Below the pieces are notes generated by a model that saw only the letters and a program-made list of their open reading frames with translations, did not search any database and was not told the origin of the DNA. A stretch of 64,000 nucleotides of DNA from Eubacteriales bacterium (GTDB lineage Bacteria; Bacillota; Clostridia; Oscillospirales; CAG-272), in assembly GCA_045543555.1 (NCBI GenBank), contig JAZQMQ010000018.1, positions 10,985-74,984 on the forward strand, in the 5' to 3' direction. Of this stretch, positions 33,985 to 47,049 are shown in pieces. The translations under genes and the position numbers were made by a program. Numbering within the stretch: the first letter of the stretch is position 1; each line of letters starts with the position of its first letter.

Positions 33985-34014
33985 TGAAATTATAATTTAA
34001 AGGAGATTGTTACT

Positions 34015-34170
34015 ATGAAATACGTATGCGACGTTTGTGGCTGGGAATATGACGAAGAGCTGGGCGACGAGGAGCTCGGCATCGCTCCCGGAACTAAGTT
34101 TGACGATCTTCCCGAGGATTTTGAGTGCCCCCTCTGCGCAGTGGGCAAGGACGAATTTTCCGAGGCTTAA
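34015..34170 (+). CDS. Rubredoxin (51 aa; below the ORF-track cutoff)
   Basis: [15 protein letters not shown]...[13 protein letters not shown] has two CxxC pairs. AGGAG lies upstream. Confidence 0.85.
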
Positions 34171-34181
34171 TTATATAAAAT

Positions 34182-34212
34182 AAAAAAGTGCCTTTCGGCA
34201 CTTTTTTATTTT
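34182..34212. terminator. Bidirectional terminator
   Basis: aaaaaagtgcc-tttc-ggcactttttt. Confidence 0.8.
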
Positions 34213-34238
34213 ATATAACGCCCTTTTGAAGAATCACG

Positions 34239-35162
34239 TTAGCGTACCGCACTTTCACCCGTGGCGATGATGAGATAGCAGGAACGCGCCTTCTCGTAAA
34301 AGGCAAAACGCTCAATATTATCAAAGGCTGCTTCGCCTCTGTCATCGTATTTTGCAACGATGCTCTTGTATTCATCCCATATCGGCGTCGCTATCCTGCC
34401 AAAGTCGGAGGGTGTCAGCTCCATCAAGGAAACAGTGCGGTCAGCGTAGGTGTCAAGGGTAATCAAGGTGAGAATGGCGTCAAGAATTTCGTGAACACCG
34501 AGACCGTTGAGAACGTCGTTTTCAGTCGCGAGAATATAGGGCTCGCGAGCACCGTTCCAGTCGAATGAGGTGTTGAGCATAGCCTCATGGAAGTCACAGT
34601 TGGGATAGAAGTCGGTCCACGGTCTCTGAACCTGGAAGCCTGCGGCGATGGTGTTGAGACCTAACATTTCCTCCTCACAGCCTGCGGGAATGTTGGTAAC
34701 CTCGTCGAGATTCTGAACGTCGTGACCTAGATGCCGAATGCGGGCAGACCTTTTTGAGCGTGGGAAGCGAGAACCGATACAAGATAAATCGCGCCGGGAC
34801 GCTCGGTACCGTTGAAGCCCCAAACACCCTTAATGGTCTGGGGATCCATATCCATGGTCTCGGAGCCGTAGCACCGGCAGGGAGTAACGGTGAGGGTGAT
34901 ATCAACGCCGTTTCTCTTGAACCTTTTCAGCACAAGCGGAAGCCTCCGCAACACGACCGATGGTGGTGTCTGCGATTATTACACGAAAGGGCTCACCGTT
35001 TGAGTAACAGAGATTTTCTTCAAAAAGCTTTTTGGCGGCATTAGCCATTGCCATGGTCTGCTCCTCAAGTGATTCTCTGACCTTAAGGGGACCGCGTCTT
35101 CCGTCGATTGTGGGACGAATGCCTATAACGGGGTGTTCGCCAACGTAACGGTTTGTAGCCAT
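34239..35162 (-). pseudogene. fucI: L-fucose isomerase relic in three frames, with a large internal deletion and a foreign-looking C-terminus
   Basis: The pieces match E. coli FucI blocks: [28 protein letters not shown], then [18 protein letters not shown]...[11 protein letters not shown], then ...[45 protein letters not shown]. About 310 of roughly 590 aa remain. Confidence 0.8.
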
Positions 35163-35406
35163 ATAAATATCCTCCGGAGATATATATTTTTTCTGTTTCA
35201 GTTATGCATTAGCAACTAAAAATTGTCAAGATATAGCCTTACAAAAAACATAGGACGGAACTCATATAAGCATTCCCTCAAGAGTGCCCTCGGATGCCGG
35301 TACAGAAGCGAGATAAACGAAAAACAGAGGCGCTTTCCGAATATTCAGACCCCTGATGAAACCGCTCTGTCGCTATGACCTGGTTTGAAAACAGCCTTGG
35401 CTGTAT

Positions 35407-35466
35407 GCTCGGTCTTGTGGTGAAAGCGCGTATCTGAAAACAGAATGATAAAAAGGCTTGAAAGTA
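35407..35466. repeat. Intergenic repeat, compact copy (40-mer and 20-mer contiguous)
   Basis: gctcggtcttgtggtgaaagcgcgtatctgaaaacagaat followed by gataaaaaggcttgaaagta. The two parts are identical to 45757-45796 and 45860-45879. Confidence 0.95.
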
Positions 35467-35497
35467 TGCGCTTGAGTTATATGCTTAAACATTATAA

Positions 35498-35533
35498 GAA
35501 AAAGCGAAGTCACTGTGTGACTCCGCTTTTTTG
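35498..35533 (-). terminator. Terminator after nfnB (hairpin usable in both directions)
   Basis: gcgaagtcac-tgt-gtgactccgc, flanked by A and T runs. Confidence 0.7.
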
Positions 35534-35549
35534 CTTCATTAAATATTAA

Positions 35550-36956
35550 TCATGAAAGAGCATCGATGATCGCTTTTGCTGCGATTTTGCCCGAGCCCAT
35601 AGCTGAGATAACAGTAGCTGCGCCGGTAACAGCGTCACCGCCTGCGTAAACGGAGTTACGAGATGTTAGACCGTCCTCGTTTACAATGATTCCGCCGTGA
35701 CGGTTAACTTCAAGTCCTTCTGTAGTTGATTTGATAAGCGGATTCGGCGACGTACCGATTGACATTACGACGGTATCAACGTCTATAACGAATTCGCTGC
35801 CTTCAATAGATACAGGACGGCGTCTGCCCTTTTCGTCAGGTTCGCCGAGCTCCATTCTGACGCACTTCATACCCGTTACAAAGCCGTTCTTCGGATCTTT
35901 TGGATTCTGGGGATTATTGTAGCCAATTATCTCAGTGGGATTGCACAGAAGATTAAATTGGATACCTTCCTCTTCTGCGTGCTTAACCTCCTCGCGTCTT
36001 GCGGGAAGCTCCTCCATTGATCTGCGATAAACGACGTAAACCTTTTCTGCACCGAGACGAAGTGCGGTTCTTGCGGCATCCATAGCAACGTTTCCACCGC
36101 CTACAATCGCGACCCTTCCACCCTTCATGATAGGAGTTTCGGGGGTTTCGAGGTATGACTTCATTAAATTGCTTCTTGTCAGGAACTCATTGGCGGAGTA
36201 AACGCCCTTATATGCCTCGCCCGGAATATTCATGAAATTAGGAAGTCCAGCACCCGAACCAATGAATACAGCCTCATAGCCCATTTCAAACAGCTCGTCG
36301 ACAGTGAGAGTTTTACCTATTACAACGTTGGTTTCTATCTTAACTCCGAGTGCTTTAAGCCCCTCAACCTCCTTGGCAACGATTGCTTTGGGAAGACGGA
36401 ATTCGGGGATACCGTAAACAAGAACGCCGCCCGCGGTGTGAAGAGCCTCAAAAATGGTTACTTCAAAGCCAGCTTTGGCGAGATCTCCCGCACATGTAAG
36501 ACCCGAAGGTCCTGAACCAACTATTGCGACTCTGTGACCGTTACTTTCAGGACGAACCGGAGCCTCAGAACAGAAGGTGTTGTGCCAATCGGCAACAAAG
36601 CGTTCAAGACGGCCGATGCCAACGCTTTCGCCCTTAATACCGCGAACGCACTTGGATTCGCACTGATTTTCCTGAGGACATACTCTTCCGCAAACAGCAG
36701 GAAGGGAAGATGTTTTAGCTATGATCTGATAAGCACCCTCAAAGTCGCATTCCTTGATCTTGGCGATAAACTCGGGTATACGTATCTTAACGGGGCAACC
36801 CGAAACACAGGGCATATTCTTACAGTTAAGGCAACGGTTTGCCTCGTCGATTGCTATTTCTTCGGTGTAGCCCAGAGCAACCTCGTTGAAATTATGAGCA
36901 CGAACCTTGGCATCTTGTGTTGGCATCTCGTTTCTTTTAGGATTCATATTTGCCAT
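35550..36956 (-). CDS. nfnB: NfnB-type subunit (GltD-like, 'glutamate synthase small chain'-like) of NADH-dependent reduced ferredoxin:NADP oxidoreductase
   Basis: N-terminal Cys clusters CLNCKNMPCVSGCP...CGRVCPQENQCESKC and two Rossmann motifs, VAIVGSGPSGL and VAIVGGGNVAMD. It is paired with a PyrK-like subunit. Confidence 0.8.
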   Translation of the reverse strand: MANMNPKRNEMPTQDAKVRAHNFNEVALGYTEEIAIDEANRCLNCKNMPCVSGCPVKIRIPEFIAKIKECDFEGAYQIIAKTSSLPAVCGRVCPQENQCESKCVRGIKGESVGIGRLERFVADWHNTFCSEAPVRPESNGHRVAIVGSGPSGLTCAGDLAKAGFEVTIFEALHTAGGVLVYGIPEFRLPKAIVAKEVEGLKALGVKIETNVVIGKTLTVDELFEMGYEAVFIGSGAGLPNFMNIPGEAYKGVYSANEFLTRSNLMKSYLETPETPIMKGGRVAIVGGGNVAMDAARTALRLGAEKVYVVYRRSMEELPARREEVKHAEEEGIQFNLLCNPTEIIGYNNPQNPKDPKNGFVTGMKCVRMELGEPDEKGRRRPVSIEGSEFVIDVDTVVMSIGTSPNPLIKSTTEGLEVNRHGGIIVNEDGLTSRNSVYAGGDAVTGAATVISAMGSGKIAAKAIIDALS

Positions 36957-36958
36957 TT

Positions 36959-37813
36959 TTAATGTATCTCCTTTTTGAAGAGATTGCATGCCTCGTCGTG
37001 AGCGTGTCGCTCAAAATCGGCATACATTCTGCCTCTGGACATTGCTTCGTCAAAATCTATTTCGTAGCCGTTGAAATCAGGTCCGTCCACACAAGCAAAC
37101 TTGGTAACCTTCTTACCGTCAACGTTAAGAGTGAGTCTGCAGCCGCCGCACATTCCGGTGCCGTCGATCATAATGGGGTTCATGGAAACGGTTACCGGTG
37201 TACCGAAGGGCTTTGCTGTAGCAACTACGAATTTCATCATGATAAGCGGACCGATGGTTATGATCATATCGAATTTCTCGCCTGATTCAAGCATTTGCTT
37301 TAAGGGCAATGTAACGTTACCGTGCTCGCCGTAGGAGCCATCGTCGGTCATAATGCGGAGCGTGTCTGAGCAAGCTCTGAACTCATTTTCAAGAATGAGC
37401 AAATCCTTGTTTCTGAATCCGATGATGCTTGTTACTGTAGCCCCCATATTGTGAAGTGCTTCGGCGATGGGCATTGCGATAGCGCAGCCAACTCCGCCAC
37501 CAACGATGCAAACCTTCTTTAGCCCTTCAAGATGGGTTGCAACACCGAGAGGACCCACGAAATCCTGAATGTAGTCGCCTTCTTCCTTGTGCGAAAGCTT
37601 TTCGGTGGTAGCTCCGACTACTTGGAATATGATTTTAACGCCGCCTCTTGCGGTATCAACGCCTGCAACTGTGAGGGGGATTCTTTCCCCCGTTTCGTTA
37701 ACGCGTAAAATGATGAACTGCCCCGGCTTTGCCTTATTTGCAACCAACGGAGCTTCGATCCAAAGCTGAATAACAGTAGGATTTAAGACTTTTTTTTCTA
37801 AGATTCTGTACAT
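36959..37813 (-). CDS. nfnA: NfnA-type subunit (PyrK-like FAD/NAD-binding, 2Fe-2S)
   Basis: MYRILEKKVLNPTVIQLWIEAP...GERIPLTVAG...DGTGMCGGCR. Confidence 0.8.
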   Translation of the reverse strand: MYRILEKKVLNPTVIQLWIEAPLVANKAKPGQFIILRVNETGERIPLTVAGVDTARGGVKIIFQVVGATTEKLSHKEEGDYIQDFVGPLGVATHLEGLKKVCIVGGGVGCAIAMPIAEALHNMGATVTSIIGFRNKDLLILENEFRACSDTLRIMTDDGSYGEHGNVTLPLKQMLESGEKFDMIITIGPLIMMKFVVATAKPFGTPVTVSMNPIMIDGTGMCGGCRLTLNVDGKKVTKFACVDGPDFNGYEIDFDEAMSRGRMYADFERHAHDEACNLFKKEIH

Positions 37814-37873
37814 AATTTTCCTGTGAGTTTAAATAAATGACTTGAAAACTTATAATATATCAATCAAGTGAGA

Positions 37874-38368
37874 TCATATCTTCCACTTTTTTGATTTTTC
37901 AACGAGAATACCCGAAACGAAGCCTATCAGGAAACCTGCGATCACTCCGCTGATAAGGAGTGCGGGGAGATAGAAGGCTATTTCGGAGGTTTGCGTCCAA
38001 AAGCAAGCTGCAATTATCTGTCCTATATTGTGAAGAATACCCCCCACGATACTTACTGTAATGCAGGAAAACAGCTTGGTCTTTTTTAGTAAGATCATTC
38101 CGAGCAGACTCAAGACCGCTCCTGCGAGGCTGAAGGTTATCGTTTGAATATTTCCGAAAAGCAGCGAGACAAGGAAAATCCTGATCAGGCTTACCGTTAC
38201 CGCTTCCTTCCAACCGATTCGGTAAAGAAGAAATACGATTATCAGATTCGGCAAACCAACCTTGATACCCGGAAGTGCAACAAGCGGAGGTATTTGACTT
38301 TCAACAAACGAAAGGATCATGGCAAGTCCGATAGACAAGCCCAAAAAAGATATTTTTTTAGACTTCAT
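37874..38368 (-). CDS. Gx transporter family membrane protein (Hpre_diP_synt_I-like)
   Basis: MKSKKISFLGLSIGLAMILSFVESQIPPLVALPGIKVGLPNLIIVFLLY... with five TM helices. The start is placed at an internal ATG, since the long ORF N-terminus is non-membrane and Arg-rich. Confidence 0.7.
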   Translation of the reverse strand: MKSKKISFLGLSIGLAMILSFVESQIPPLVALPGIKVGLPNLIIVFLLYRIGWKEAVTVSLIRIFLVSLLFGNIQTITFSLAGAVLSLLGMILLKKTKLFSCITVSIVGGILHNIGQIIAACFWTQTSEIAFYLPALLISGVIAGFLIGFVSGILVEKSKKWKI

Positions 38369-38394
38369 ATGCCCCTTTCCTTTCTTTGTATTTA

Positions 38395-38748
38395 TTAACC
38401 TATAAGCTCGGGTGCGCTGTCGTCTGCTCCGTAAACCGTGACTGTTAATCGGTTGGGCAGGCAGGTTATCGTTTCGCCGGTCTGATCGATTTTGCCCTGC
38501 TTTACACACAGATGATCGGGACAGCTTGCAGAAATGAGATATGCTTTGCCTTTTTCTATTCGGAGACAGTTCGTTCCGCCGTTGAGCTCGTATTCGCCGT
38601 CCTCGGATAAGCTGTATCGTTCAACCTCTTTGCCGTCCACACGAATCACAACGTATGCTCCGTCTTTTTTTGAAAATGTTACGGCAACAATCACGATAAT
38701 TATCGCGATCAGAATGATACCAATAAGTATGAAATCATTTTTTTTCAT
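38395..38748 (-). CDS. NusG domain II-containing (DUF1312) TM-anchored protein
   Basis: An N-terminal TM is followed by VVIRVDGKEVERYSLSEDGEYEL...ASCPDHLCVKQGKI...ITCLPNRL. Confidence 0.7.
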   Translation of the reverse strand: MKKNDFILIGIILIAIIIVIVAVTFSKKDGAYVVIRVDGKEVERYSLSEDGEYELNGGTNCLRIEKGKAYLISASCPDHLCVKQGKIDQTGETITCLPNRLTVTVYGADDSAPELIG

Positions 38749-38787
38749 GTGTTTATATAAATTATTATTTTTTCTAAATCTGGTCGA

Positions 38788-39849
38788 TCATTTTCTGATC
38801 AAAATTTCAAGTCCTGCGGTATAATATTGGGTTCCGTCGCCGGTTATCCATAGTACCTCAACGTTACCTAACTTGTTCGCAAGCGCAAGTCCGTCCTCAT
38901 AGCTCATTACGAATAGAGCTGTGGACAAGGCGTCTGCTAAAGCGCTGTCGGGAGTGATTATCGTTACCGATCTGAAATGATCCGCGGGCATTAAAGTGTC
39001 CTTATCGATTATGTGGTGGTATCTTTTGCCATCGACCGAGAAAAACCTTTCATAATCTCCCGAGGTTACGCAGGACGTGTCTGAAAGTGTGAGTGTCATA
39101 GCATATTTACCGGTATCGGAAGGGTCCTTTATTCCCGTACCCCATCCTGTGCCGTCTGGCTTATGACCTATGATGCGAATGTTACCGCCGATATTGAGCA
39201 CGTAGCTGCTTGCTCCGACTGAGCGCAGATATTCCGCCGCCTTTTCAGTTGCGTATCCCTTACCTAAAGCGCCCACGTCGATGGATGCTTTCGGATCGCT
39301 TATACGGACGGTCAAATTTGTTTCATCTATTTCAAGCAGGGAAATGTCGGTGTGATCTGCCGCCTCTTTAAGAGCTTCCATTGACGGAATTGTGGCGCTT
39401 GACGGGTCATTTGCCGCTTCTGTACGGCAATCGTGCCAATGACGCAAAACTGAGCCCATCATAATGTTCACTTCGCCGCTTGTGATGTCATAAAAGCTCT
39501 TGGCATAAACGAGAAAATCGATCAGCTTTTTATCAACCTTTACAGGCTCACCGCCTGCATTCAGGTTGATTGTCTTCAGGTTGTTGACTCCTGAAAATTC
39601 ATAATAGATATTGAACAGTGCATGGTATTCCTCAAGTATGGCAGAAACGCCGTTGCAGTGTGCCTCAAAGTCCTTTTGGGACTCTTCTGCGTAGCTGTAA
39701 ACATACGAAACCGTGTCAAAAAAGGAGAAATACATCATTCCCCGAGGTTCATATTTTTCTTCCCTAATGGCAGATTTAGGGCAGCCCGTCAAAAAGACGA
39801 GCAGCCCCAAAACAATGCATAAGAAAGCGGAAGATTTGAATATCTTCAA
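38788..39849 (-). CDS. apbE: FAD:protein FMN transferase (ApbE/Ftp) lipoprotein
   Basis: Lipobox FLTGC. ApbE blocks are present: FDITSGEVNI, DVGALGKGYA, VTSGDYERFF..GKRYHHIIDP-like. Confidence 0.85.
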   Translation of the reverse strand: MKIFKSSAFLCIVLGLLVFLTGCPKSAIREEKYEPRGMMYFSFFDTVSYVYSYAEESQKDFEAHCNGVSAILEEYHALFNIYYEFSGVNNLKTINLNAGGEPVKVDKKLIDFLVYAKSFYDITSGEVNIMMGSVLRHWHDCRTEAANDPSSATIPSMEALKEAADHTDISLLEIDETNLTVRISDPKASIDVGALGKGYATEKAAEYLRSVGASSYVLNIGGNIRIIGHKPDGTGWGTGIKDPSDTGKYAMTLTLSDTSCVTSGDYERFFSVDGKRYHHIIDKDTLMPADHFRSVTIITPDSALADALSTALFVMSYEDGLALANKLGNVEVLWITGDGTQYYTAGLEILIRK

Positions 39850-39876
39850 ATTTTCGACTCCTATTAAGGTTTTAAA

Positions 39877-40965
39877 TTATCTTGCGTTGGTAGCAGCCTT
39901 AGCCATTACAGCCTTTATAGCGGTGATCTGAATGGTGCAGCCTGCAGCAAGAAGATCGGTATCTGTGGTCATCTGGTAGCCGAGAGAGTTTTCGGAGACA
40001 GCCATGTTAGCAACCTCGGTTGCGGTCATGCCGACAACGTGCTTGGAGAACGCTTCGGACTGGAGGTACCACTCAAGAACCTTACCGTCGTTGTTGGGAT
40101 CGTAGTTGGGGCCGTAGTTAACAGCGGGAGACATGTTGTATGCTTCCTTGAGGTTACGCTTGGTGTTAACGTAGGTAGCCTCAACGACCTCACCTGCGGT
40201 ATTGATGGTGATCTTGGGCTGAATTGCATCATTAAGAGCAGCGATAATCTTGCCGTCTGCAACAACTGCAGCAGCGAAATCGGAGTACATAGCAACAAGA
40301 CCGTTTTCATCGGCGGTAGCAGCAGTGGAGTCAGCAGCGCTGGTGGAAGCAGCAACACCGAGAGTGAACTTAGCTGCGGTCTTGAATGTCATACCCTGAT
40401 CATCGTTGCAAGCAGCAACAACCGCGTCTCTGAACTCATCGATCTGAATGGTACAGCCTGCAGCGAGAAGAGCCTCGTCGGTAGAGATCATATAGCCTGC
40501 GCCTGATCCTTCGGAAGCAGCAGCCTTAGTGGTCATTGCAGCGATCTCGGCAGCGGTCTTTCCTACTACGTAGTTTTCGAATGCCTTAGCCTGATCATAC
40601 CATTCCTTTACGATACCGTCGCCGTTCCAGTCCATTCCGTAGCCAAGAGCAGCAGCCATGCCGTAAGCATCGCCCTTTTCTGCTTTGGTCTGGAAGGAAG
40701 CTGTAGCATCAACAGCACCATTAGCAATATTCATTTTATTTTGAGCAACATCGATACGGCAGAGAACTATTTTACCGTCCTTGTCTGTTACGACTGTAGC
40801 AACTGTAGCATCAACCTGAGCGTTTTCGGCCGTGGAGCTTGCGGTACTTACTACTATTCCCATGCCGAGCTTGTACTCTGCTTCGGTGGTCTTTTTATTC
40901 TCGGTGCAAGCAACAACGGAGAGAGCCATTACTACACAGAGAACGAGCGCGAGGAGTTTCTTCAT
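39877..40965 (-). CDS. Lipoprotein made of two homologous halves of about 160 aa, function unknown (possible FMN_bind-like fold)
   Basis: Lipobox VVAC. Both halves end in GY.(I/M).T(D).(A/D)LLAAGCTIQI. Both also contain DGKI(V/I) and W(Y)..(A/S)(K/E)AF..(Y/H)VVG(K/M)TA.E(I/V)A.M. Confidence 0.6.
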   Translation of the reverse strand: MKKLLALVLCVVMALSVVACTENKKTTEAEYKLGMGIVVSTASSTAENAQVDATVATVVTDKDGKIVLCRIDVAQNKMNIANGAVDATASFQTKAEKGDAYGMAAALGYGMDWNGDGIVKEWYDQAKAFENYVVGKTAAEIAAMTTKAAASEGSGAGYMISTDEALLAAGCTIQIDEFRDAVVAACNDDQGMTFKTAAKFTLGVAASTSAADSTAATADENGLVAMYSDFAAAVVADGKIIAALNDAIQPKITINTAGEVVEATYVNTKRNLKEAYNMSPAVNYGPNYDPNNDGKVLEWYLQSEAFSKHVVGMTATEVANMAVSENSLGYQMTTDTDLLAAGCTIQITAIKAVMAKAATNAR

Positions 40966-41072
40966 TGTGAAATCCGTCCTTTTTGTAATAAAATGTTATA
41001 CAATACGACGCAACACCGCTTGTTTTCTTGTGTTAAAACATATAATGAATTGCAATCGAATGTATCCGATAT

Positions 41073-41101
41073 ATTTTATCATAGACAGCAAATTTTGTCA
41101 A
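41073..41101 (-). promoter_or_regulatory. Sigma-A promoter (minus strand) for the lipoprotein-apbE-...-nfnAB unit
   Basis: On the minus strand: TTGACA (41101-41096), a 17-nt spacer, TAAAAT (41078-41073). Confidence 0.6.
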
Positions 41102-41205
41102 TGGTTTTTCAAGCATTTTTGTGTTATGAAGCCTCTGAAATGGAACTTGTGGTGTTATTTATAAAAATTCCCACAAAAGCACTAAAAATAATGTTTTGCA
41201 GGCTA

Positions 41206-41234
41206 TTGAAAAAACGTTACAAATATGTTATAAT
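41206..41234 (+). promoter_or_regulatory. Sigma-A promoter immediately upstream of rnfD
   Basis: TTGAAA at 41206-41211, a 17-nt spacer, TGtTATAAT at 41226-41234. Confidence 0.65.
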
Positions 41235-41303
41235 GTGTCGAATACGCAAAACATTCATTACCGGTATATCAAATAATATTGGCAAATAAACAAGGAGAAG
41301 AAA

Positions 41304-42179
41304 ATGGATAATTTGGCGGTATCGAATTCGATTTCCCAAAACGGTGGATCCAAGGTTAGAAGAGCTATGCTTGACGTAATTATCGCTCTTTTTCCCGCGG
41401 TGATAGCCGCAATAGTGTTTTTTAAGCTTGATGCTTTAGTACTGATCTCGGTATGTGTCGTCACTGCGGTGATTTCCGAGATGGTCTTCAATTTGGTATG
41501 TAAGAGAAAACAGACGGTGTCCGATCTCAGTGCGGTCGTTACAGGTCTTTTGCTTGCACTTTCGCTCCCTGCGGACGCAACGGTGTGGCAATGTGTTGTA
41601 GGCTCGTTGTTTGCGATCGTGATTGTAAAGTGTGCATTTGGAGGAATAGGATATAATTTCGCCAATCCCTCTGTTGCGGCAAGGGTACTGCTTATCGTTG
41701 CCTTCGGAACGGCTGCTTCGGGAACTGAAGGTGAGCTCCCGTCTTACGTTGATATGCTTTTATCGAATCGCGGAGGTTTGATCGGTGAGGCGTGTGCGGC
41801 AGCACTTCTGGTTGGAGGAATATACCTTATTATCCGCAGGGCTATAAGCTGGTATGCTCCCCTTACGTACATAGTCGGGGTATTTGCGCTTTCGTTTGCT
41901 ATCACACAGGATGTAAAGCTCGCTCTTTACTATGTTGTAAGCGGAGGAGTAATGCTCGGAGCTATCTTTATGGCGTGCGATCCCGTTACCTCTCCCAAAA
42001 AGTGCTTTGGTAAGATAATTTTCGCCCTTTGCTGTGCTGTTATAACAGTGCTCATTCGTGTTTACGGCACAAATTCCGAAGGAGCAACGTTCTTTGCAAT
42101 ACTTCTTATGAATATCAGTTGCCCCTATATCGACAGAATGTTTGAGAAAAAACAGACAAATGAGGAGGTTGCAAAATAA
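41304..42179 (+). CDS. rnfD: Rnf complex subunit D (short form, 291 aa)
   Basis: DLSAVVTGLLLALSLP, KCAFGGIGYNFANPSVAAR and GEACAAALLVGGIYLI are present. The expected D..(S/T)GATPL loop is replaced by GTAASGTEGEL. Confidence 0.8.
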   Translation: MDNLAVSNSISQNGGSKVRRAMLDVIIALFPAVIAAIVFFKLDALVLISVCVVTAVISEMVFNLVCKRKQTVSDLSAVVTGLLLALSLPADATVWQCVVGSLFAIVIVKCAFGGIGYNFANPSVAARVLLIVAFGTAASGTEGELPSYVDMLLSNRGGLIGEACAAALLVGGIYLIIRRAISWYAPLTYIVGVFALSFAITQDVKLALYYVVSGGVMLGAIFMACDPVTSPKKCFGKIIFALCCAVITVLIRVYGTNSEGATFFAILLMNISCPYIDRMFEKKQTNEEVAK

Positions 42180-43396
42180 TGAAGAATAATTTGAAACCTA
42201 CCATAACGTTAAGTGCCATCTGCGTTGTTGTGGCTCTTCTTTTGTCGGTGATCAATATGATCACAGGTCCAATCATTGAGGCACAGAGAAATGCTGCGGC
42301 AAACGGTGCGCTTCTTGTTGTAATGCCCAACGGAACTGGGTTTGAGGAGCTGAATGCAGCCGAGCTCGGACTTTCGGATGCCGTAACTAACGTTTATAAG
42401 GAAACGTCAGGAAAGGGATATGTTTTCCGAGTCGTATCAAACGGATACAAGCCCGGAATGGTCGTCATGGTTGGCGTTGATTCCGATGGTAAGGTTACCG
42501 GAAGCAAATGTCTTGAGACACAGGATACCTTCGGTAAGGAACCACAGATCGATGGCAAGTATAACGGACAAACACTTGCAGATTTTTCTCCCGTAATCCT
42601 CACGGGAGCGACGATGACCAGCAATGGATATCGCGATGCAGTCAATATTGCACTTCAGTCGTTCGTTCTCGCTTCCGGCGGAAAGCTTGATCCGTCAATT
42701 GAGCTTGAGGGTAAGATTCCGGAGCTTGTTCCTGTATTCAAGGACCTTGTTGCAGTAGAGGCGTCGGGTAATATTGTTAAGGCTCTCAAGGCAAAGAACG
42801 ATACGGGATTTGCATATATAATCAAGAACGGCGAAGCATATTACGTTGCTGCTGTAAACGCTATGGGCGTATGCACGGTATATGATTCTGAAGGCAACGA
42901 CATAACCGCGGAAAGCGAAGCAATCATTGCCGAGGCTAAGGCTCACGCTGCAGCAAATCAGGTGTCCTATAATGAAGCACTTAAGAAAAATGCGGAGAGT
43001 ATGATGCCTGGTGCAACGAATTTTGCGGATGTTGAGCTTAATACGTTCAATACAGTCGTTTCTGCAGTAAGCTTTACAGTTGACGGCGCGACTTATTACG
43101 GCTTCTATTCCAGAAGCGTCGGCTTCCGCCAGATGGACGTCTTCATCATCATCGATGAGAACGGCGCGATCGCAAAGATTAACGCCAAAGAATTTATCTT
43201 CGATAAAGAATACTTTGCTAACTTTGCAGGTATGAACGTGGGAGAATATAAGGCGGGATTTGAAGGCCTTACTTCAGAAACCTGGAACGGCGATGCGGCA
43301 ATTATAGCAACTGCTACCATGACGTCCAATGCAATGAAGGAATCCACAAGCGATGCATTTGAGGCATTTAACTCGATCAAAGGAGGAGAACAGTAA
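42179..43396 (+). CDS. rnfG: Rnf complex subunit G, double length (405 aa) with two FMN-attachment-type motifs
   Basis: An N-terminal TM is present. The first motif is ILTGATMTSNGYRDAV and the second is IATATMTSNAMKEST. The start overlaps the rnfD stop (TAATG). Confidence 0.8.
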   Translation: MKNNLKPTITLSAICVVVALLLSVINMITGPIIEAQRNAAANGALLVVMPNGTGFEELNAAELGLSDAVTNVYKETSGKGYVFRVVSNGYKPGMVVMVGVDSDGKVTGSKCLETQDTFGKEPQIDGKYNGQTLADFSPVILTGATMTSNGYRDAVNIALQSFVLASGGKLDPSIELEGKIPELVPVFKDLVAVEASGNIVKALKAKNDTGFAYIIKNGEAYYVAAVNAMGVCTVYDSEGNDITAESEAIIAEAKAHAAANQVSYNEALKKNAESMMPGATNFADVELNTFNTVVSAVSFTVDGATYYGFYSRSVGFRQMDVFIIIDENGAIAKINAKEFIFDKEYFANFAGMNVGEYKAGFEGLTSETWNGDAAIIATATMTSNAMKESTSDAFEAFNSIKGGEQ

Positions 43397-44100
43397 TGAA
43401 AAACAATAAATTAGCTATACTCCTTCGCGGTATTATTACCGAAAATCCCGTACTTATCCTTATTCTCGGTACCTGTCCCACTCTTGCGGTAACAGGAAAC
43501 ATTATTTCAGCTATTTCGATGGGACTTGCGGCAACAGTGGTTTTGACCTGCTCAAACGCTGTTATTTCCGCACTTCGAAAGGTTATTCCCGACACCGTTC
43601 GAGTTCCTTGTTATATCGTCATCATTGCCGCATTCGTAACAGCGGTGCAGATGCTTCTTCAGGCATTTCTTCCTTCAATATATGAAATGCTCGGGGTATA
43701 TCTCGCCCTGATCGTCGTTAACTGCGTTATTCTCGGCAGAGCCGAAATGTTTGCACGTAAAAACACCGTAATAGATTCGATTTTCGACGGAATAGGAATG
43801 GGCGGAGGATTTATTCTGGCACTATTCCTTATGGCGTTTATCCGTGAGGTGTTTGGTGTCGGAAGCTTCGCGGGAATTGAGCTTGGCTTCATGAAGAGCT
43901 TTACAATTCCTGTTCTTGCTCAGGCCCCGGGTGGATTCTTGGTATACGGTATACTTATTGCGGTTATGAATAAGCTTACGGAAAAGAAGGGCGGAGTTAA
44001 GAAAAAGAGCTTCAGCTGTGAGGGCTGTCCATCCGCACATATTTGTCAGAAGAGTGTATGTATTGCCAAGGTAGAAAAGGAGGACGCTGAAAATGTTTAA
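43396..44100 (+). CDS. rnfE: Rnf complex subunit E with a Cys-rich C-terminal tail
   Basis: NPVLILILGTCPTLAVT is present. The tail is KKKSFSCEGCPSAHICQKSVCIAKVEKEDAENV. Confidence 0.85.
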   Translation: MKNNKLAILLRGIITENPVLILILGTCPTLAVTGNIISAISMGLAATVVLTCSNAVISALRKVIPDTVRVPCYIVIIAAFVTAVQMLLQAFLPSIYEMLGVYLALIVVNCVILGRAEMFARKNTVIDSIFDGIGMGGGFILALFLMAFIREVFGVGSFAGIELGFMKSFTIPVLAQAPGGFLVYGILIAVMNKLTEKKGGVKKKSFSCEGCPSAHICQKSVCIAKVEKEDAENV

Positions 44101-44686
44101 GGAGCTTGTACTCATACTTATGGGCGGAGTTCTCGTAAATAACTACGTCCTAAACCAGTTCCTCGGAATCTGTCCTTTCCTTGGTGTTTCAAAAAAGGTC
44201 AATCAGGCAAGCGGAATGGGCTTTGCGGTTATATTCGTTATGCTTTGTGCTACTGCAGCAACATGGCCGATACACAAATATATACTCGTTCCCCAAAAGC
44301 TTGAGTATCTTCAGACGATCGTATTTATTCTTGTGATTGCGACTCTCGTTCAGTTTGTTGAGATAGTTCTCAAGAGATATATTCCGTCGCTTCATGCATC
44401 ACTCGGAATTTACCTTCCTCTGATCACTACAAACTGCGCGGTTCTTGGTGTTACGATCAACAATATTTCGGACGGTTACAATTTCCTTGAATCTATGGTC
44501 TCATCCCTTGGTGTAGGTCTTGGATTCTTGCTGGCAATGTTGCTTTTCGCGGGTGTCCGCTCGAAGCTCGATGATTCGAATGCACCAAAATGCTTCCGCG
44601 GTCTTCCCGTTACACTTATTTCCGCGTCTATAGTTGCTATGGCATTCTATGGATTTGCAGGAATCGTTGAAAAGCTGTTGGCATAA
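44093..44686 (+). CDS. rnfA: Rnf complex subunit A
   Basis: NNYVLNQFLGICPFLGVS and LITTNCAVLGV. Confidence 0.85.
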   Translation: MFKELVLILMGGVLVNNYVLNQFLGICPFLGVSKKVNQASGMGFAVIFVMLCATAATWPIHKYILVPQKLEYLQTIVFILVIATLVQFVEIVLKRYIPSLHASLGIYLPLITTNCAVLGVTINNISDGYNFLESMVSSLGVGLGFLLAMLLFAGVRSKLDDSNAPKCFRGLPVTLISASIVAMAFYGFAGIVEKLLA

Positions 44687-44701
44687 GGAGGTAGGTATAT
44701 T

Positions 44702-45520
44702 ATGCAAATACTTATTCCGGTTCTTATTTGTCTTGGTATAGCGGCTGTATGCGCTATAATACTCACCGTGTCCACCGTGCTTTTCGGAGTGAAAGAGGAC
44801 GAAAAATTTTTGGCGGTACGCGATGCTCTCCCCGGTGCTAACTGCGGTGCTTGCGGATATAGCGGTTGTGACGGATATGCACGAGCTCTTTCGGAGGGTA
44901 AAATTACTGAGGCAAATCTCTGTATTCCCGGCGGAAGCAAAACAGCCGAGGAGATTGCCGCTTTGCTCGGTCTTGAAGCGGGCGAAGTTGTAAAAATGTT
45001 TGCGTATATCGGATGTAACGGAACCTGTACTGCATCCAAGAAGGACGAAAAGCACCTTCGCGACGGATTTTCTTCCTGTAAGGAAGCGGCGGCACACTGG
45101 GAGGGTGAAAACGTTTGCGTATTTGCCTGCATAGGTCTCGGAGACTGTGTGTCTTCTTGTCCCAATAACGCAATCGTTTTAACCGACGGCGTCGCAAAGG
45201 TTATTTCAAGTCTTTGTACAGGCTGTGGTCTTTGCGCAAAGACTTGTCCGCACGGAACCATACGTATGCTGAAAGAGGGAACGACCATGGCTATTGGCTG
45301 TTCCAATCATGACAAGGGCGCACTTACAAGAAAAATGTGTGTTAACGGCTGTATAGGATGTACTAAATGTGAGCGTACGTGTCCTAACGGTGCGATCACA
45401 ATGGTAAACAATCTTCCTGTTTTGAACTATGATAAGTGCTTAAGCTGCGGTCTTTGTGCAGAGGCGTGCCCAATTCACGCAATACATAAGGATGCTTTTA
45501 TATGCGACAAATGTATTTGA
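44702..45520 (+). CDS. rnfB: Rnf complex subunit B (polyferredoxin)
   Basis: An N-terminal TM, LPGANCGACGYSGCDGYA, then several CxxCxxCxxxCP motifs. Confidence 0.85.
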   Translation: MQILIPVLICLGIAAVCAIILTVSTVLFGVKEDEKFLAVRDALPGANCGACGYSGCDGYARALSEGKITEANLCIPGGSKTAEEIAALLGLEAGEVVKMFAYIGCNGTCTASKKDEKHLRDGFSSCKEAAAHWEGENVCVFACIGLGDCVSSCPNNAIVLTDGVAKVISSLCTGCGLCAKTCPHGTIRMLKEGTTMAIGCSNHDKGALTRKMCVNGCIGCTKCERTCPNGAITMVNNLPVLNYDKCLSCGLCAEACPIHAIHKDAFICDKCI

Positions 45521-45530
45521 TCGCATAATG

Positions 45531-45572
45531 AAAACCACCGAGAAGGTAATTGAATTGCCACTCGGTGGTTTT
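45531..45572 (+). terminator. Terminator after rnfB
   Basis: A 12-bp stem, aaaaccaccgag/ctcggtggtttt, with an 18-nt loop and a T-rich 3' side. Confidence 0.65.
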
Positions 45573-45756
45573 CTTTAGTGTTTGGAGCTGTCAAGGTGAT
45601 ATTAAGGTATTAAAATTTGAAAAAAGATACCTCAAAAGAACGGCAACTTAATATGGCAGAGAGTGTGTTTGACATATTATGAAATCGAAAATGTGAAAAG
45701 CTATATATCGCACTCGGTGTTTGCTGTAGCGCAATCTTTGAAAGAAAGAACGGTAA

Positions 45757-45879
45757 GCTCGGTCTTGTGGTGAAAGCGCGTATCTGAAAACAGAATCATT
45801 TTAATCCATATTTTTCCTTACATAAAAAATTGTATGCCGTTTATAATAACTCCAGAGCCGATAAAAAGGCTTGAAAGTA
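45757..45879. repeat. Intergenic repeat, split copy (40-mer, 63-nt insert, 20-mer) upstream of the SASP gene
   Basis: 45757-45796 and 45860-45879 are identical to 35407-35446 and 35447-35466. The 63 intervening nt contain TTACAT-N18-TATAAT. Confidence 0.95.
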
Positions 45880-45908
45880 CAATACCTTTAAGGTAAGGAG
45901 AATTTAAA

Positions 45909-46118
45909 ATGGCTACTAAAAGCAATAAGACTGTAGTGCCTGAGGCACGTGCCGCACTTGATAAGTTCAAGATGGAGGCAGCAAACGAGGTTGGTGTAAA
46001 CCTCAATAATTCCTATAACGGTGACATCACCGCCCGTCAGGCAGGTTCCGTCGGCGGTCAGATGGTTAAGAAGATGATCGAGAAGTACGAAAACGATCTC
46101 AAGAACGGAAACAGATAA
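45909..46118 (+). CDS. Alpha/beta-type small acid-soluble spore protein
   Basis: VVPEARAALDKFKMEAANEVGV...QAGSVGGQMVKKMIE are both conserved SASP blocks. Confidence 0.9.
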   Translation: MATKSNKTVVPEARAALDKFKMEAANEVGVNLNNSYNGDITARQAGSVGGQMVKKMIEKYENDLKNGNR

Positions 46119-46163
46119 TTTTATTATCCCTAAATGCCCTTCGCTTATGCGGAGGGTATTTTT

Positions 46164-46204
46164 GTAACCGAAAACCCCGCCATTATGGCGGGGTTTTCGG
46201 TTAC
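46164..46204 (+). terminator. Strong terminator after the SASP gene
   Basis: An 18-bp stem, gtaaccgaaaaccccgcc/ggcggggttttcggttac. Confidence 0.8.
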
Positions 46205-46207
46205 AAT

Positions 46208-46240
46208 AAAAGGTTACGCGGTGTTGCCGCGTAACCTTTT
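46208..46240 (-). terminator. Terminator after the SIMPL-domain gene
   Basis: aggttacgcgg-tgttg-ccgcgtaacct, flanked by A/T runs. Confidence 0.75.
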
Positions 46241-46243
46241 ACA

Positions 46244-46840
46244 TTATCCTCGATAGCTTAAAACCACTCTGCACTCAATTTGAACTCTCCCGTCGGGACA
46301 GGCAGAAAAGCTGAAATGACAGCAATCGGGATCCGAGCCAAAATCGTGAAGAGCTGTCGGATCGCCCTTTATACCGCACGCAGATGCTCGTGCCTTCGCG
46401 TTTTCAACCGCTTCCTTTAAGGCGTTCTTTTCCAATTCCGTACGATTCTCGAGACTGTACACGGGCGAGCTGACGCTTGATGCTCCTCCATTTATAAGCT
46501 TATTCATAATTGCGGAAGCATCTTTTGTGCGCGGTGACGAAATAACGTAGGTTCTTGCCTTAATTTCCTTTCCGCTTTGATCAGTATAGGAAAAATAACC
46601 GTCAAGAGCAGGTATCCCGTATTCACTGATCGATTTTTGTATTTCTTGGGCTTTTTCATTCAGGTTCTTTTCGCCTTTTCCATGATCTTCGATAACGTAG
46701 CTGATCGTAACTTTATCGGCGGGGGCGTATAAGACCGCTTTTCCTGTTAATGTCGCTTTTGAAACCGTTGCGGCTTCCGAACGGGTGCAAAGTGACAGAG
46801 TTAAGGTCAATGCAAATAATATTATAAATACTTTTTTCAT
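46244..46840 (-). CDS. SIMPL (DUF541) domain secreted protein
   Basis: The start is at MKKVFIILFALTLTLSL, preceded by AAAGGTG. A signal peptide is present, and the body resembles SIMPL proteins (...ELEKNALKEAVENAKARA...). Confidence 0.65.
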   Translation of the reverse strand: MKKVFIILFALTLTLSLCTRSEAATVSKATLTGKAVLYAPADKVTISYVIEDHGKGEKNLNEKAQEIQKSISEYGIPALDGYFSYTDQSGKEIKARTYVISSPRTKDASAIMNKLINGGASSVSSPVYSLENRTELEKNALKEAVENAKARASACGIKGDPTALHDFGSDPDCCHFSFSACPDGRVQIECRVVLSYRG

Positions 46841-47049
46841 ATAAATCACCTTTCTTTTTTTGATATTATTAGTATTTCCCGAGCTGAAAAGGATAAAAGT
46901 ATATAATATTTCCAAAAAAAGTTTAAAAAAAGTGAAAAAAAGAATTTCTTTATTCACAATTATGATGTATAATAGTATTATGAAAAATTATGTTCTCATA
47001 AAACCGGCGATTGAGGACACAAATATAAAGCCGGAGAAACGGACGTATT

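Follow-up and report, generated by a model that had tools for sequence, protein, structure and literature searches.

Transhydrogenase genes nfnAB appended to an extracytoplasmic flavinylation cassette that faces an rnf operon without rnfC in a clostridial genome

Why should the genes of a soluble transhydrogenase, nfnA and nfnB, stand at the end of a row of extracytoplasmic flavinylation genes, opposite an rnf operon that has no rnfC? This arrangement occurs in a stretch of 64,000 nucleotides (nt) from the assembly of a Eubacteriales bacterium (GCA_045543555.1, contig JAZQMQ010000018.1, positions 10,985 to 74,984), referred to here at its full length as the window. Six minus-strand genes lie there in tandem, in the order lipoprotein, ApbE, NusG_II, Gx, nfnA and nfnB. 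A preliminary description had put forward the speculation that NfnAB is functionally tied to the facing Rnf because that complex lacks RnfC, and that it might balance ferredoxin and NAD(P)H pools or even dock to the complex. After comparing the locus with its relatives, we consider the best explanation, and a likely one, to be that these are inherited, colocalized and probably coexpressed redox-balancing modules, with NfnAB neither docking to Rnf nor replacing RnfC. The locus comprises the following features (positions are those of the window; aa, amino acids).

41073..41101, minus strand: promoter-like site for the unit, TTGACA-17-TAAAAT with an upstream TG (11/12 in a consensus scan)
40966..41072, minus strand: 5' leader of ~100 nt, from the alignment with sister locus L068
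39877..40965, minus strand: two-repeat lipoprotein, 362 aa, with a lipobox; no Pfam family
38788..39849, minus strand: ApbE-type FAD:protein FMN transferase, itself a lipoprotein (PF02424, 231 bits; NF007774 match)
38395..38748, minus strand: membrane-anchored NusG_II domain protein, 117 aa (PF07009, 107 bits)
37874..38368, minus strand: Gx, EetB-like membrane protein (Hpre_diP_synt_I; PF07456, 133 bits)
37873..37902, minus strand: candidate internal nfnAB promoter, TTGAAA-18-TATGAT (10/12), overlapping the 3' end of Gx
36959..37813, minus strand: NfnA, predicted small subunit (FAD, NAD(H), [2Fe-2S]), 284 aa (NF004862, 375 bits; full-length match in the PDB)
35550..36956, minus strand: NfnB, predicted large subunit (two [4Fe-4S], FAD, NADPH), 468 aa (TIGR01316, 564 bits; 4YLF_B)
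35498..35533, minus strand: intrinsic terminator after nfnB, hairpin and T-run
41304..45520, plus strand: facing rnfD, rnfG (405 aa), rnfE, rnfA and rnfB, without rnfC (layout T1 below; Pfam and NCBIfam)

The six open reading frames, their order and the gaps between them (27, 39, 26, 60 and 2 nt) were reproduced exactly as first described. The unit has the sequence features of an operon, being co-directional with short gaps, a strong promoter-like site upstream, no intergenic terminator found inside it, and a G+C-rich hairpin of ~15 bp followed by a T-run at 35533..35498, in agreement with the upstream promoter site and the first convincing terminator described earlier. In the intergenic alignment with the sister locus, the block that holds the promoter-like site is the one where conservation is highest. 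Transcription would start at this site, pass through all six genes, given that no terminator intervenes, and stop at the hairpin beyond nfnB. The site at 37902..37873 corresponds to TTGAAA-18-TATAAT in the sister species, where the Gx stop codon is TAA; it is an unproven candidate for an nfnA promoter, and its conservation is confounded by the coding constraint on Gx. This weaker promoter probably contributes transcripts of nfnAB only. Judged from these signals, read-through from the upstream promoter together with a secondary nfnAB promoter is probable.

NfnAB is an electron-bifurcating transhydrogenase that catalyzes the reversible reaction NADH + reduced ferredoxin + 2 NADP+ <-> NAD+ + oxidized ferredoxin + 2 NADPH. 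The second module of the unit is predicted to be an ordinary soluble enzyme of this kind. Its PyrK-like small subunit, NfnA, has full-length, colinear matches in 5JCA_S (8e-80) and 4YLF_A (3e-76), exceeds the NF004862 cutoff of 220 bits and contains FAD and NAD(H) folds. The Asp and three Cys residues of its [2Fe-2S] site (pattern DGTGMCGxCR...FACVDGP) are kept, with MIDGTGMCGGCR...FACVDGP aligning with MVDGTGMCGACR...FACVDGP. The GltD-like large subunit, NfnB, matches 4YLF_B across residues 7-463 (1e-155), has Fer4_20 and Pyr_redox_2 domains with sites for FAD and an NADPH fold, exceeds the TIGR01316 cutoff of 472 bits and retains both [4Fe-4S] Cys motifs (RCLNCKNMPCVSGCPV and LPAVCGRVCPQENQCESKCV). 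By length and predicted cofactor motifs, NfnAB is canonical. Neither subunit has an extra domain, segment or docking extension in comparison with the Nfn proteins of Thermotoga maritima and Pyrococcus furiosus, and both align end to end with T. maritima NfnAB, which speaks against the suggested docking to Rnf.

ApbE transfers FMN from FAD onto Ser or Thr residues of exported proteins. The first module of the unit would be an extracytoplasmic flavinylation cassette made up of the lipoprotein, ApbE, the NusG_II membrane protein and Gx, with the functions of ApbE and Gx, like that of NfnAB, assigned by homology. The PF02424 match of ApbE spans 266 of 266 profile positions, and an extracytoplasmic location is predicted from a signal peptide recognized in the sequence, with LTGC as its lipobox. 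Gx, encoded two genes downstream of apbE, combines membership in PF07456 with apbE colocalization; ECF-T or ECF-A partner genes (ECF, energy-coupling factor) are absent from the six-gene unit. PF07456 is the family of Listeria EetB, an ECF-S subunit shown to be required for the export of FAD to FmnB, a homologue of ApbE (PMC9973259), and by analogy Gx would take part in FAD export. Clusters like the flavinylation part of the unit are already known: in 572 genomes of Clostridia, eetB homologues were reported to be colocalized with Rnf and ApbE (PMC9973259). NusG_II lies directly upstream of Gx in most of 119 Gx-bearing loci, and the lipoprotein precedes ApbE in most related loci whose contig extends upstream of ApbE. 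The two halves of this lipoprotein are 46% identical to each other (E = 3e-26), and it has no Pfam match even at E = 1. In this genome, the cassette would most likely serve the two-flavin RnfG of the facing rnfDGEAB.

The facing operon has its own promoter-like site at 41206-41234. A canonical six-subunit Rnf has RnfC encoded with the other subunits, and in the 64-kb window this is not the case: tblastn with three RnfC queries found no RnfC-like sequence anywhere in it, and none of the five proteins of the operon matches RnfC_N or Complex1_51K. To place both gene sets among their relatives, we compared three survey sets, namely 67 loci anchored on the long RnfG in species-representative genomes, 80 loci anchored on Gx in metagenomes, and the neighborhoods of the closest lipoprotein and Gx homologues, all mapped with the window proteins. 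The relatives in this comparison (loci numbered with an L) are metagenome-assembled genomes (MAGs) or metagenome contigs throughout. Three layouts were distinguished.

T1: rnfD-G(long)-E-A-B without rnfC, orthologous to the operon in the window; 14 genomes, always stand-alone
T2: lipoprotein-ApbE-rnfC-D'-G'(long)-E'-A'-NusG_II-Gx, with RnfC present and RnfB absent; 27 genome loci plus metagenome loci
T3: lipoprotein-ApbE-rnfCDGEAB-NusG_II-Gx, in one direction; more distant relatives

The T1 operons are close to the one in the window (RnfE 85-88% and RnfA ~90% identical), and their neighbors are a solute-binding-like lipoprotein, a Flavin_Reduct protein and MatE. No lipoprotein (of the cassette type), ApbE, NusG_II, Gx or Nfn gene lies within ~8-10 kb of any of the 14. 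This weighs against the proposed connection, with 0 of 14 orthologous rnfDGEAB loci having nfnAB within that distance. In addition, 12 of the 14 T1 genomes also contain a T2 cluster with rnfC (L001-L011, L018, L035 and L036 versus L012-L041, same assemblies), in which the gene between ApbE and RnfD' carries RnfC_N and Complex1_51K domains. The C-less and B-less paralogous Rnf sets are complementary in their cytoplasmic subunits, and this bears on how a C-less Rnf is to be read. In two T2 clusters, RnfG' reaches ~638 aa (L027:9188-11104 and L028:8777-10696), half again the doubled form of 405-430 aa. An idea that a B-less Rnf is accompanied by either a C-less set or nfnAB was dropped, since neither was detected near the B-less sets of L028, L030, L031, L033, L034 and L041. 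Compact ApbE-NusG_II-Gx clusters without rnf genes, as in the window, also occur in L078, L079, L093-L096 and L115; nfnAB is absent after them in L093-L096, whose contigs are long enough downstream.

The arrangement in the window is reproduced in a sister species (lipoprotein 88% and Gx 96% identical). In one sister locus, L068, rnfD points away from the lipoprotein gene, which is followed by the start of ApbE, and contigs from five samples (L153-L157) show ApbE, NusG_II, Gx, a 58-nt gap and NfnA, L154 including the 3' end of the lipoprotein gene as well. Given that these independent assemblies reproduce the layout, it is not an assembly artifact.

More widely, nfnAB was encountered behind Gx in about 13 lineages, the majority of which belong to a single well-supported clade, so the adjacency is conserved in relatives and the six genes behave as a conserved unit, as had been claimed. 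The pair is placed directly after Gx in L020, L027, L037, L039, L162, L163 and L164, and after Gx and an inserted FAD_syn gene in L158-L161; the short contigs L073 and L100 show only RnfA'-NusG_II-Gx-NfnA, with the NfnA of L100 being 70% identical. In the linked relatives, nfnA and nfnB are encoded on the same strand as Gx and are 87-92% and 85-90% identical to those of the window. Outside the window lineage, every Nfn-linked relative with a long-enough contig has rnfC-D'-G'-E'-A' between ApbE and NusG_II. In a tree of concatenated ApbE, NusG_II and Gx with 40 taxa (39 loci and the window), the window falls together with L158 and L160 (support 0.996), and this group is nested in a 10-member clade (support 0.946) of which nine members are Nfn-linked and one, L070, represents a loss. 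L027 is also Nfn-linked in this tree, and L028, L031 and L033 (support 0.921) are unlinked. A tree of the genome loci places the four Nfn-linked loci and the window in one subclade together with L028. A single origin of the linkage is probable. Nearly every genome of the clade has different genes ahead of the lipoprotein, yet nfnAB stays attached; with this turnover as an internal control, the data indicate that the linkage is maintained by selection.

Given that the window is nested in a clade of rnfC-containing, Nfn-linked operons, the linkage predates the loss of rnfC at this locus. A tie caused by the missing RnfC of the facing complex is therefore not supported: outside the window lineage, the Nfn-linked operons on long-enough contigs have an rnfC of their own. 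By this comparison, the arrangement is inherited. An ancestor of the clade had lipoprotein-ApbE-rnfC-D'-G'-E'-A'-NusG_II-Gx-nfnA-nfnB, that is, an Rnf operon with flavinylation helpers that gained nfnAB at its 3' end and kept it across a clade of uncultured gut Clostridia. The window lineage then lost its own rnf genes by a clean deletion of the five T2 genes, leaving the accessory genes fused to nfnAB, and the paralogous C-less rnfDGEAB came to lie divergently upstream. NfnAB and Rnf would be tied by shared pools of ferredoxin, NADH and NADPH and by coexpression. The earlier suggestion of a functional tie is therefore retained in part: conserved synteny and the HydABC-type genes of three relatives make a balancing of ferredoxin and NAD(P)H plausible, and the missing RnfC is not supported as its cause. 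These hydrogenase genes, of HydC, HydB and HydA type (NuoE-like, NuoF-like and [FeFe] hydrogenase), lie beyond the nfnAB terminator at L162:13266-18972, L163:13139-18717 and L164:13005-17056, and L162 and L163 have one further Fe-hydrogenase gene each. Rnf, Nfn and HydABC-type genes in L162-L164 form a redox-module neighborhood.

Several observations weigh against the explanation that we favor. Of 91 Gx loci whose contigs continue for at least 600 nt past Gx, only 6 show the linkage, which is absent outside this clade; in the genome-locus tree, the other 28 T2 and T3 loci lack it, and it was lost in L028, L031, L033 and L070. On the metagenome contig L074, nfnB (985-1263) is convergent on Gx, ~100 nt from the Gx end, as though the nfnAB unit had been inverted, changing its strand but not its neighborhood; this shows that nfnAB can be its own transcription unit. 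The Gx-nfnA gaps of L039, L162 and L163 (132-197 nt) hold a promoter of their own, TTG(C/A)(A/G)(A/T)-17-TATAAT with a TGn-extended -10. A search for RNA sequencing runs matching the window sequence found none, only one weak match to a DNA run.

The losses, the orientation in L074 and the promoters ahead of nfnA are what would be expected if nfnA and nfnB were transcribed independently, as a bicistronic unit from a promoter of their own, so that the synteny is only historical and the adjacency has no functional meaning. The separate promoter before nfnA that this explanation calls for is clear in the three relatives just named, and the window and the sister species have a candidate. Against this explanation, the adjacency is kept in nine of the ten core-clade members despite complete turnover of the upstream neighbors. 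Moreover, the gaps before nfnA in L158, L020, L037 and L164 are 17-53 nt long and lack promoter-like sites, implying that nfnA is cotranscribed there, and none of the relatives examined has a terminator separating Gx from nfnA. Behind nfnB there is a strong terminator in 8 of 8 relatives examined, including those in which it is followed by HydABC-type hydrogenase genes. We regard a purely historical synteny as unlikely.

Another alternative is an economy of flavins: the NfnAB heterodimer holds two FAD and could have been grouped with FAD-handling genes so that the supply of FAD and the enzymes using it are made together. A stand-alone FAD synthetase (FMN adenylyltransferase) protein of ~200 aa, with PF06574 and without a riboflavin-kinase part, is indeed encoded in L158 (7212-7826), L159-L161 and L077 (3938-4504). 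In L158-L161, its gene is located between Gx and nfnA, with gaps of 4 nt after Gx and 17 nt before nfnA, a position that fits a local supply of FAD for export and flavinylation. However, the window lacks this gene, which is confined to one or two sublineages; it tracks Gx rather than Nfn, since L077 has it behind Gx in the absence of nfnAB; and most cytoplasmic flavoenzymes are not grouped in this way. We give this explanation very little probability.

It is equally improbable that NfnAB is a working partner of a truncated Rnf, the B-less set in the relatives and the C-less one in the window, supplying the missing entry point on the ferredoxin or NAD(P)H side. If true, this would be a new kind of NADPH-linked or bifurcation-coupled Rnf; docking, itself of low probability, would arguably hold more interest in the case of the B-less T2 than in that of the C-less T1. 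Least probable, by a small margin, is that the facing C-less Rnf uses NfnAB as its cytoplasmic NAD(P)H/ferredoxin module, specifically required by it or docking to RnfD/B in place of RnfC: the absence of rnfC from the window, the divergent locus that nfnAB shares with rnfDGEAB (a layout that the sister contigs jointly show as well) and the selection that clearly maintains the linkage in the clade would all suit it, but nfnAB was linked to the accessory genes of an rnfC-containing operon before rnfC was lost here, none of the 14 orthologous C-less loci has nfnAB within ~8-10 kb, 12 of those genomes encode RnfC in a second cluster, and NfnA and NfnB are colinear with known Nfn proteins without any extra segment. 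The idea that NfnAB replaces RnfC was accordingly removed as unsupported.

Just downstream of the -10 of its promoter-like site, the leader of the unit contains an imperfect palindrome at 41040-41065 (ATATAATGAATTGCA/TGCAATCGAATGTAT), and ~60 nt ahead of the lipoprotein ATG (within 40966-41030) are almost identical in the sister species; both stretches may be operator or leader elements. An Rfam scan of window positions 34000-47000 with E values up to 0.1 gave no match, nor did the window contain a Rex-type operator (TTGTKAA-N6-TTMACAA, at most two mismatches). The relatives have a leader of a different kind, with a conserved hairpin of ~25 bp located ~30-125 nt upstream of the lipoprotein start (core TTAATCTGT...ACAGATTA). 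Among the nine sequences compared (L020, L026, L027, L037, L039, L159, L160, L162 and L164), 17 of its 25 pairs show compensatory changes. This hairpin matches no Rfam family at gathering score and is unrecognizable in the leaders of the window and the sister species. At the other end of the unit, beyond the nfnB terminator, a 194-aa open reading frame (34239-34823, minus strand) has matches to RbsD_FucU and, limited to profile positions 109-171, to Fucose_iso_N2, and so may represent a fragment or a fusion.

We found no paper that links nfnAB to apbE or rnf operons. Nfn and NusG are unmentioned in PMC9973259 and in related flavinylation papers, the latter of which do not mention RnfC either. 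For reconstructing the metabolism of gut MAGs, it is useful to know that Rnf, Nfn and, in some relatives, a bifurcating hydrogenase are kept as one neighborhood. The split of Rnf into C-less and B-less paralogues within the same genomes bears directly on the interpretation of C-less Rnf.

Comparison with known systems shows which parts of the locus are familiar. The closest counterparts are the Rnf-ApbE-EetB clusters of Clostridia, which likewise have ApbE and an EetB homologue beside rnf genes and for which a logic of FAD export and RnfG flavinylation has been inferred (Rivera-Lugo et al. 2023, PMC9973259). The window differs from them in that its accessory genes are not interleaved with rnf genes, face a five-gene C-less Rnf and have nfnAB at their 3' end. 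With the extracellular electron transfer (EET) locus of Listeria monocytogenes (FmnB/ApbE, EetB, FmnA, PplA), the unit shares an ApbE-type transferase, an EetB-family membrane protein and a repeat-containing surface lipoprotein. Unlike that locus, it has no Ndh2, DmkA/B or FmnA (ECF-T), its lipoprotein has no FMN_bind match, and the membrane electron path is of the Rnf type instead. Compared with the canonical rnfCDGEAB of Acetobacterium woodii and Clostridium ljungdahlii (structure 7ZC6), the facing operon has RnfD, G, E, A and B in the usual order and differs in the lack of rnfC and in its 405-aa RnfG, while close relatives of the window split the system into C-less (D G E A B) and B-less (C D' G' E' A') sets. 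The NfnAB pair itself resembles T. maritima NfnAB (PDB 4YLF/4YRY) and P. furiosus NfnI (5JCA) in its two adjacent genes, equal lengths, full-length alignment, cofactor motifs and FAD and NAD(P) folds. The difference is one of context only, in that the pair in the window is appended to extracytoplasmic flavinylation genes across a 60-nt gap without a terminator.

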